The notes under the pieces are model-generated. The model was given only the letters and a program-made list of their open reading frames with translations. It did no database searches and was not told the origin of the DNA. Below are positions 9,497 through 14,889 of a stretch of 64,000 nucleotides of DNA, one piece after another (the stretch's first letter is position 1; the number at the start of each line of letters is the position of its first letter). The stretch lies in the NCBI RefSeq assembly GCF_041886205.1, contig NZ_CP169029.1; one strand, given 5' to 3'. The stretch comes from Escherichia coli. Its GTDB lineage: Bacteria; Pseudomonadota; Gammaproteobacteria; Enterobacterales; Enterobacteriaceae. The position numbers and the translations under genes were made by a program.

Positions 9497-11731
<2,235 letters not shown>

Positions 11732-12005
11732 TTATAATTGAATTAATCCACGGATGCGATAGTTGAGATCTTACATATTGTTGGTTAAAGAGATGTAGAT
11801 CAAATTGATCGTAATTAAGCTTTTTTGATTATGTCCGAATTCGGACAAATGCTTTATAAAAAAGGGTTTTAGCTTCATATCCTTCAAGTAATGAGGGAGA
11901 AAACAAGGCTGACAACCTTATTTTCCCGCCCTCATTTCGAGGCAGCATTTTGTGCTCTGTTTAAAATTTGTGATCACTGTGTGATTTTCACAAAAGCCAC
12001 ACTAT

Positions 12006-12899
<894 letters not shown>

Positions 12900-12945: not shown

Positions 12946-12977
12946 ATCCATTTAGACGTCCAGATGTAAAGATGAAG
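12946..12977 (-). promoter_or_regulatory. Tandem met-box (MetJ operator) repeats upstream of metF
   Basis: agacgtcc agatgtaa agatgaag: three consecutive 8-mers resembling the AGACGTCT consensus, about 50-80 bp upstream of the metF start. Confidence 0.6.
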
Positions 12978-13307: not shown

Positions 13308-13335
13308 AGTAGAACGTTCTAGTAGAACGTTCTAC
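13308..13335. promoter_or_regulatory. Tandem palindromic operator-like site upstream of the PTS gene
   Basis: aagtagaacgttctagtagaacgttctact: two abutting copies of a palindrome centred on CG (TAGAACGTTCTA); the second copy is a perfect 16-bp palindrome AGTAGAACGTTCTACT; lies about 55 bp upstream of the PTS start codon. Confidence 0.5.
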
Positions 13336-13389
13336 TTATATAAATAATCGTTCTTGCGCAGTCATCTGCGCTATTCGGGGGAAATCAGC

Positions 13390-14889
13390 ATGGGTCTGAT
13401 ATCGAGTGTCGTAAAATCACTTTCTAAACTGTCGATGATTGGTCGCGCGCTGATGCTGCCAATTTCGCTTCTGCCTGCCGCCGGGTTGTTACTGGCGTTC
13501 GGCGATAAATTCCACATGCCGTTGATGATGAATGCCGGCGGTATCATTTTTGATAACTTGCCGATGCTTTTTGCTATCGGTTCTGCCGTGGGACTGGCTT
13601 CAGAATCGGGTATTGCGGCGCTATCCGCAGCTGTATCCGTCTTTGTCACTAATATCACCATCGGTACTGTCCTTGGCATCACACCAGAGATGGCCGGGCA
13701 AGGCGGTAAATATGCGATGGTGGTGGGGATCCCAACGCTGCAAATGGGCGTCTTCGGCGGCCTGATATGCGGGGTTCTGGCGGCGTGGTGTTACAACCGT
13801 TTTCATACCATGCAATTACCAGAATTCCTTGGCTTTTTCTCCGGCAAACGCTTCGTGGCTATCGCGACGGCTTTTCTTTCCTTCATCCTTGGCTTGTTAC
13901 TGCCCTATGTCTGGCAACATATTCAGTCGGGAATCGATGCCCTATCAGTTATCGTCAATGGTGATAACCAGGCGGCATCGACCTTTATTTTTGGTGTGAC
14001 AGAACGTGCGCTCATTCCGCTTGGCCTGCACCACATCTGGTATCCATCGTTCTGGTACTCTTTTGGTGATTACACCACCCAGGCAGGCCAAATGATCCAC
14101 GGTGACCAAACAATTTGGTTCAAAATGCTGGAAGAAGGTGTGAAATCGTTCAGTAGCGACAGCTACCATAACGCGGGTAAGTTTTTACAGGGCGAGTTTC
14201 CGCTCATGCTGTTCGCGCTGCCTGCGGCGTGTCTGGCGATGTACCATGAAGCACACACCAAAAATAAGAAAATTGCCGCCGGTATTCTGTTCTCTGCCGC
14301 ATTAACCTGTTTCCTGACAGGTATTACAGAACCCGTTGAATTTACCTTTATTTTCGTGGCACCGGTACTGTACGTATTTAACGCGATAATGGCTGGCCTC
14401 TCCTATATGGCGATGTATCTGCTCCATGCCCACATTGCAAAATCCTTCTCGGCAGGGCTTATCGATTATATTTCGTTTGGCATCCTGCCATCATTTAACG
14501 GCTACGAAACCAACTTCCTGAGTGCCATTATTGTTGGCGTACCGATGGCGATTATCTATTACTTCACTTTCCGCTTTGTTATTCGCCGTTTTGATGTGAA
14601 AACACCGGGTCGAGCCGAAAGCACTGTATCCGCTAACGATAAAACCGATGATGAACTGGCTACGGAAATTATCAGTCTGCTGGGCGGCCAACAAAATATC
14701 TCTTCCGTCGCATCCTGCATAACGCGCCTGCGTCTGGAAGTGGCGGATAAAGATGTGGTTGATAAAGATGGACTGAACAATGTCGGTGCTCGTGGTGTGG
14801 TTTTCGTCGGCGAGAACGGCATTCAGGTGATTTTTGGCGCACGTGCACAATTTATCGCGCAAACCATGTCGACGATGATTGGCAAATAG
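13390..14889 (+). CDS. PTS glucose-family EIICB permease (substrate unknown)
   Basis: ORF-track entry 13354..14889; start placed at ATG 13390 (GGGGG 8 nt upstream). Multi-TM EIIC domain followed by an EIIB domain with the phospho-Cys motif SVASCITRLRLEV. Confidence 0.8.
   Translation: MGLISSVVKSLSKLSMIGRALMLPISLLPAAGLLLAFGDKFHMPLMMNAGGIIFDNLPMLFAIGSAVGLASESGIAALSAAVSVFVTNITIGTVLGITPEMAGQGGKYAMVVGIPTLQMGVFGGLICGVLAAWCYNRFHTMQLPEFLGFFSGKRFVAIATAFLSFILGLLLPYVWQHIQSGIDALSVIVNGDNQAASTFIFGVTERALIPLGLHHIWYPSFWYSFGDYTTQAGQMIHGDQTIWFKMLEEGVKSFSSDSYHNAGKFLQGEFPLMLFALPAACLAMYHEAHTKNKKIAAGILFSAALTCFLTGITEPVEFTFIFVAPVLYVFNAIMAGLSYMAMYLLHAHIAKSFSAGLIDYISFGILPSFNGYETNFLSAIIVGVPMAIIYYFTFRFVIRRFDVKTPGRAESTVSANDKTDDELATEIISLLGGQQNISSVASCITRLRLEVADKDVVDKDGLNNVGARGVVFVGENGIQVIFGARAQFIAQTMSTMIGK

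Follow-up and report, generated by a model that had tools for sequence, protein, structure and literature searches.

The perfect 16-bp palindrome in the spacer between metF and katG of this Escherichia coli chromosome maps to the middle of a stretch protected by the repressor YgaV, and the chances appear evenly balanced that in K-12-type E. coli it forms the dyad at the core of a weak YgaV site restricted to some lineages. Binding of this region by YgaV is already known in vitro; the placement of the palindrome at its centre is a mapping made here. In favour of the YgaV reading are the published gel shift and DNase I footprint, the central position of the 16-mer, its 4-N8-4 layout and its lack of terminator features. 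Against it stand the roughly 20 times weaker binding, the lack of a SqrR-type box and of TGTCC/GGACA in the ygaVP promoter, the absence of the palindrome from 44 other species, its degenerate alleles, its variability in a species where ygaV itself is core, and a palindrome count at chance level. The palindrome is at most a minor, recent regulator site, since it is expected by chance, is found in some lineages only and lies amid a stretch that YgaV binds weakly.

The palindrome and its surroundings

The earlier note had placed the palindrome between katG and metF from the letters alone, and this layout is right, with both genes on the minus strand. The palindrome that it described exists, although at 11832-11847 and not at 11833-11848, an error of one base. 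Its distance from the katG start, which had been put at about 155 bp, agrees with the 155-170 bp that we find to the ATG on the upstream side; on the other side, the metF stop codon lies about 159 nt before the palindrome, which is downstream of metF. Positions are those of the window, that is, the whole 64-kb stretch that was analysed.

9497-11677, minus strand: katG coding sequence
11832-11847, no strand assigned: perfect 16-bp palindrome TGTCCGAATTCGGACA, layout TGTC-N8-GACA, with an EcoRI site inside
12006-12896, minus strand: metF coding sequence

The metF-katG spacer is 100% identical to that of strain GF4-3 and 99.4% identical to that of many other E. coli strains. The 16-mer occurs once in the window, which contains two perfect 16-bp palindromes in all. 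This count is no rarer than chance: 100 dinucleotide-preserving shuffles gave 1.51 +/- 1.15, with at least one such palindrome in 81 of the 100, a reminder that chance alone yields a perfect 16-bp palindrome about once per 64 kb. A literature text search for the literal 16-mer returned a single match, an unrelated cloning oligo.

The other perfect 16-bp palindrome, AGTAGAACGTTCTACT at 13321-13336, belongs to two 12-bp dyads in tandem, TAGAACGTTCTA-G-TAGAACGTTCTA (13309-13336), each with a central CG. About 55 bp downstream of this pair begins a PTS EIIC gene (ATG at 13390), and after it comes the gene of a MalI-like LacI-family regulator. The pair looks like a classic, putative double LacI-family operator; it is a far better candidate for a transcription-factor site than the katG palindrome. 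These genes belong to an accessory cluster upstream of metF (12897 to about 21000 in the window) in the place where K-12 has metL. Besides the PTS EIIC and the MalI-like regulator, the cluster encodes a PLP-dependent (MocR-type) regulator or aminotransferase, an alanine racemase, a serine hydroxymethyltransferase pseudogene and a 5'-nucleotidase. The Met-box region of metF, AGACGTCCAGATGT at about 12955-12970, is kept despite the cluster.

Position relative to the OxyR and YgaV footprints

Two published footprints were placed on the window by way of the katG transcription start.

11713-11708, minus strand: katG -10 hexamer TATCGT, read from the sequence
about 11701, minus strand: katG transcription start, deduced from the position of the hexamer and from consistency with the published OxyR coordinates
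11733-11777, minus strand: OxyR footprint TATGTAAGATCTCAACTATCGCATCCGTGGATTAATTCAATTATA, -32 to -76 in PMC9774250, quoted there from Tartaglia et al.
11814-11858, minus strand: YgaV DNase I footprint TATAAAGCATTTGTCCGAATTCGGACATAATCAAAAAAGCTTAAT, position deduced from the published -113 to -157 and a start at about 11701

The placement of the YgaV footprint is derived from the published numbers, with the cross-check that the OxyR footprint falls on the known OxyR site. The block at 11733-11777 is the familiar OxyR site of katG. Relative to a start at 11701 the palindrome spans -131 to -146, with its centre at -138.5, and it is therefore outside the OxyR site, whose footprint lies about 60 bp downstream and does not overlap it. 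Moreover, the OxyR block is conserved across enterobacterial genera (44 species) and the palindrome is not. The palindrome is not part of the core OxyR/RpoS control of katG. The earlier note had proposed a dimeric transcription-factor site and had pointed to OxyR and RpoS; the first half of this was a reasonable reading, as the palindrome is centred in the mapped YgaV footprint of the K-12 katG upstream region, but the link to OxyR or RpoS finds no support.

Between the YgaV footprint and the OxyR site lies a block, GATCAATTTGATCTACATCTCTTTAACCAACAA (11778-11812), with two GATC Dam sites and the proposed LsrR AACAAT box. No E. coli-type sequence varies in it and E. albertii hardly does; in Citrobacter, Salmonella and Pseudocitrobacter, though not in Enterobacter or Leclercia, it can be recognised right after the metF terminator.

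YgaV is an ArsR/SmtB-family, SqrR/BigR-like sulfide-responsive repressor (Balasubramanian et al. 2022, PMC9774250). In that work, purified reduced apo-YgaV shifted a probe covering the entire metF-katG spacer in EMSA, protected 45 bp of K-12 DNA from DNase I (-113 to -157 of katG), and required about 20 times higher concentrations for the katG upstream region than for the ygaVP promoter; katG mRNA was raised in a ygaV mutant. The authors state that there is no SqrR-type ATTC-N8-GAAT box at katG, and neither "palindrome" nor "inverted repeat" appears in the text of the paper (PMC9774250). Later papers on YgaV give no binding motif, and katG is absent from them.

The mapped footprint is centred at -135, close to the palindrome centre at -138.5, and the 16-mer lies 11-18 bp within both of its edges; for a 45-bp footprint placed at random on a 330-bp probe, the probability of covering a given 16-mer is only about 10%. 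Dimers of the ArsR family bind inverted repeats. The palindrome, TGTC-N8-GACA, has the same 4-N8-4 geometry as the SqrR box, with only the inner TC/GA in common, a limited likeness that fits the roughly 20-fold weaker binding of YgaV. The match amounts to four of the eight specified positions, which about 11% of random 16-mers equal. Within the ygaVP promoter itself, TGTCC/GGACA was sought and is not present; the best SqrR-like box there is ATTT-N8-GAGT, next to the start site.

Set against what is expected of an ArsR/SmtB operator, the region as a whole is bound by the purified regulator, through the mapped published footprint. The palindrome, centred at -138.5, overlaps none of the -35 element, the -10 element and the start; it does not match ATTC-N8-GAAT; and it is not conserved wherever the regulator is.

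Comparison with other enterobacteria

With MetF as query, we collected 80 loci from distinct enterobacterial species, 46 of which have metF followed by katG. E. coli, E. albertii and L002, a sister species labelled E. coli, have spacers of 328-340 bp. Those of the nearest genera (Salmonella, Citrobacter, Leclercia and several Enterobacter) are 144-175 bp long, and farther out, for example in Kluyvera, Pluralibacter and Buttiauxella, the length rises to a variable 179-364 bp. Nearly all of the other species have a canonical terminator directly after the metF stop, in most of them GCCCTC-loop-GAGGGC followed by a T run, and in Citrobacter, Salmonella and Pseudocitrobacter the terminator is followed by the block GATC..TTGATCTACATCTC. 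The OxyR site is conserved in all of them. The palindrome therefore lies within a segment found in Escherichia only.

11813-12005, minus strand: Escherichia-only spacer segment of about 190 bp, from the metF stop to the conserved katG upstream block, with the palindrome inside

In the 44 spacers from other species no 16-mer comparable to the palindrome was found, the best match having at least 6 mismatches in 16. Lack of conservation across related genomes was the outcome that the earlier note had itself named as counting against a regulatory role, and this is what we observe: outside Escherichia the palindrome does not occur, and many E. coli carry it in degenerate form.

The first ~65 bp past the metF stop (11939-12005, GTGTGGCTTTTGTGAAAATCACACAGTGATCACAAATTTTAAACAGAGCACAAAATGCTGCC) are likewise specific to Escherichia yet vary little (7 variable columns in 67), and E. 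albertii retains most of them. TGTGA/TCACA repeats abound in this stretch, among them TGTGA-AAA-TCACA and GTGATCAC.

Variation within Escherichia

The palindrome is perfect in the window and in three of the genomes compared with it, and the following alleles were found:

K-12, window, str144 and 2013C-4225: TGTCCGAATTCGGACA
L002: TGTCCGAAATCGGACA
p4A: TGTCCTAAATCGGACA
UTI89: TATCCTAAATCGGACA
JNE21-003: TGTCCGAAATCAGACA
LF82: CTGCCGAAATCAGACA
E. albertii: TGTCCGTATTCGGATA

In E. albertii, UTI89, LF82, p4A and JNE21-003 it is degenerate without compensatory changes, and degenerate forms are found in roughly one fifth to one third of complete E. coli genomes. Variable columns were counted among nine E. 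coli-type sequences that had been picked for divergence, so that only the contrast between segments is meaningful:

Palindrome: 6/16 columns variable
YgaV footprint: 15/45
Remaining Escherichia-only segment: 31/158
135 bp from 11812 to the katG ATG: 1/135

Of 5426 complete genomes, 3717 carry the exact 36-mer centred on the palindrome. In the 101 bp around it, identity is 90-95% in 1004 genomes and 80-90% in 164, about 1170 in all falling below 95%. In contrast, ygaV with its promoter is found in 5418 of the 5426, at 95% identity or more in all but two; the regulator is thus core and the palindrome polymorphic. The conservation pattern argues against strong selection on the palindrome, and there is no detectable purifying selection on the site, so that it is best seen as a minor or fortuitous regulatory input.

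The intergenic region as a whole, as well as the 101-bp and 36-bp queries, has a median of one place per genome, and there are not the multiple copies per genome that a dispersed repeat (REP, ERIC or MITE) would have; a dispersed repeat or mobile-element relic was therefore rejected for this single-copy region. One record, ETEC4090 (NZ_CP122620.1), matches the spacer in two places, the match ending at the equivalent of about 11818/11819 and resuming elsewhere, which hints at an insertion that separates the palindrome from the conserved block upstream of katG.

The main rival of the YgaV reading is that the palindrome arose by pure chance, that the protection by YgaV reflects non-specific binding or binding to AT-rich flanks at high protein concentration, and that the change of katG in the ygaV mutant is indirect. 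We regard this as somewhat unlikely. In its favour, the number of such palindromes equals the chance expectation, no part of the intergenic region varies more than the one that holds this palindrome, every substitution in it is disruptive, and it is absent outside Escherichia. It also bears no similarity to the ygaVP operator, and the affinity of YgaV for the region is low, with no box that the authors could recognise (PMC9774250). What speaks for a specific site is that YgaV protects a discrete 45 bp of a 330-bp probe, with a centre within about 4 bp of that of the palindrome, and that such dyads are what ArsR-family proteins typically recognise.

A proposal for the site

If YgaV does recognise the palindrome, a rough sequence of events can be proposed. 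The palindrome would be an inverted repeat of recent origin, confined to certain lineages, in a spacer segment that evolves fast and is particular to Escherichia. In K-12-type E. coli it would serve as the symmetric core of a low-affinity site for homodimeric YgaV, the two winged-helix domains of one dimer probably contacting the TGTC and GACA half-sites, and persulfidation of YgaV would release the protein from the site. Since polymerase and OxyR bind far downstream of it, any effect of the site on katG would be indirect and modest. A more specific version holds that a single substitution at the centre, AAAT to AATT, perfected the repeat in the E. coli lineages to which K-12 and O157:H7 belong and so created a new YgaV input that wired sulfide/persulfide sensing to the catalase-peroxidase, with the degenerate alleles of the UTI89 and LF82 type lacking it; this we consider decidedly unlikely. 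If true, AAAT to AATT would be the naturally polymorphic birth of a transcription-factor site.

More broadly, were the palindrome the recognition core, it would be the first non-canonical YgaV half-site (TGTC-N8-GACA), and its alleles would form a natural series for the modulation of katG by sulfide sensing; otherwise the palindrome matters little.

Other regulators

That the palindrome is an operator of another dimeric transcription factor, far upstream of katG, appears quite improbable. Its perfect dyad symmetry and intergenic location would suit such a role, and LsrR is a further protein that shifts DNA of the katG promoter, but the box proposed for it is another one (11782-11777) and could be mutated without effect. 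However, the palindrome is poorly conserved and outside the OxyR site, and no known consensus fits it. GlrR/QseF and PpsR recognise TGTC-N10-GACA and the palindrome has N8; as a GlrR/QseF upstream activating site it would moreover be a single copy, about 290 bp downstream of the sigma-54 site. Only 6 of the 10 half-site positions of the CRP box TGTGA-N6-TCACA are matched, and MetJ and MetR boxes are absent from the 16-mer.

A 39-codon open reading frame on the sense strand, with its ATG in AAAATGCTGCC and its TAA overlapping the 3' end of the palindrome, was rejected because 1-bp indels shift the frame in JNE21-003 and L002 and it is disrupted in E. albertii.

Improbable roles as RNA hairpin or sigma-54 enhancer

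Transcribed into RNA, the palindrome folds into a 6-bp stem with a 4-nt loop (-8.6 kcal/mol, z = -3.9). On the sense strand (that of metF and katG) the stem is followed by UAAUCAAAAAAG, without a U-tract. The promoter and terminator scan gave a single terminator-like match, a marginal one on the antisense (plus) strand with a poor tail, AATGCTTTAT, and no sigma-70-like promoter in the region. In the curated Term-seq table of Adams et al. 2021, which covers three growth conditions, there is no entry for metF or katG and none at 41335xx or 41336xx. The palindrome is not a terminator, because it has neither a U-tract nor an RNA 3' end mapped in that data set, nor is its stem maintained in evolution; the opinion of the earlier note that it was no obvious intrinsic terminator of metF is borne out by the sense-strand tail and by the 3' ends of that table.

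That the palindrome acts at the RNA level, as a hairpin in a long 3' UTR of metF or in transcripts reading through into katG, be it as a terminator component or as a stem protecting the 3' end, seems very unlikely. The fold itself (with its low z-score) and the terminator-like match would speak for it, but the match is on the opposite strand and the sense-strand stem has no U-tract. In E. albertii a G-U pair preserves the pairing despite the change, though solely on the sense strand, and the change in L002 falls in the loop, whereas in UTI89, JNE21-003 and LF82 the predicted hairpin is destroyed, dropping from -8.6 to between -1.3 and -2.5 kcal/mol with no compensation; nor does the table of Adams et al. 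2021 hold a curated 3' end between metF and katG. By contrast, a long hairpin upstream of the palindrome is kept in every lineage.

11890-11938, minus strand: long RNA hairpin in the 3' region of metF, stable (-24 to -32 kcal/mol) in each of the 10 Escherichia sequences

Re-pairing keeps this hairpin in 2013C-4225, and E. albertii has a different hairpin in the same place. It has no following U-tract, and other genera have their canonical terminator at that position. This hairpin, and not the palindrome, is the likelier RNA element. An Rfam scan of 11500-12200 at permissive E-values returned only sub-threshold eukaryotic families, microRNA precursors and U12 snRNA, all of them at this neighbouring hairpin. 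Conservation is in this region the more informative guide, and by that measure a function seems more probable for the invariant block downstream and for the long hairpin that is retained upstream.

It is extremely improbable that the palindrome is an enhancer, or activator-binding site, for the sigma-54 promoter-like site that points to katG from the 3' end of metF (TTGGCGCGAATATTGCC, 12126-12142, minus strand). That motif has been reported as an intragenic sigma-54 ChIP-seq site (Bonocora 2015, PMC4591121), the metF/katG spacer holds a gSELEX peak (Shimada 2021, PMC8743547), and the TGTC/GACA half-sites resemble the GlrR box. Against this, the half-sites are spaced by N8 where that box has N10, the palindrome is not conserved and is found about 290 bp past the sigma-54 site on its downstream side instead of upstream, and Bonocora et al. 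observed no effect of the sigma-54 site on transcription (PMC4591121).

Comparison with known systems

Several known elements resemble the palindrome in part. The OxyR site of the katG promoter shares its intergenic region and target gene, but is at -32 to -76 and conserved across genera, whereas the palindrome is centred at -138.5 and has no such conservation. The GlrR/QseF (and PpsR) box has identical inverted TGTC/GACA half-sites; in the GlrR/QseF case these have a 10-bp spacer and stand at several sites upstream of a sigma-54 promoter, unlike the single copy with an 8-bp spacer at katG. The metF terminator of other Enterobacteriaceae (GCCCTC-loop-GAGGGC-T6-8 right after the stop) is also a stem-loop downstream of metF, replaced in Escherichia by the segment of about 190 bp; unlike it, the palindrome has an AT-rich loop, only four G-C pairs and a sense strand without a U-tract. 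The site of YgaV at its own ygaVP promoter overlaps that promoter, whereas the katG palindrome is far upstream of its promoter, in a region of about 20 times lower affinity. The closest likeness is to the YgaV-bound region of katG itself (PMC9774250): it is the same DNA, bound by a dimeric winged-helix repressor, with the palindrome, a 16-bp dyad-symmetric site, in its central part.
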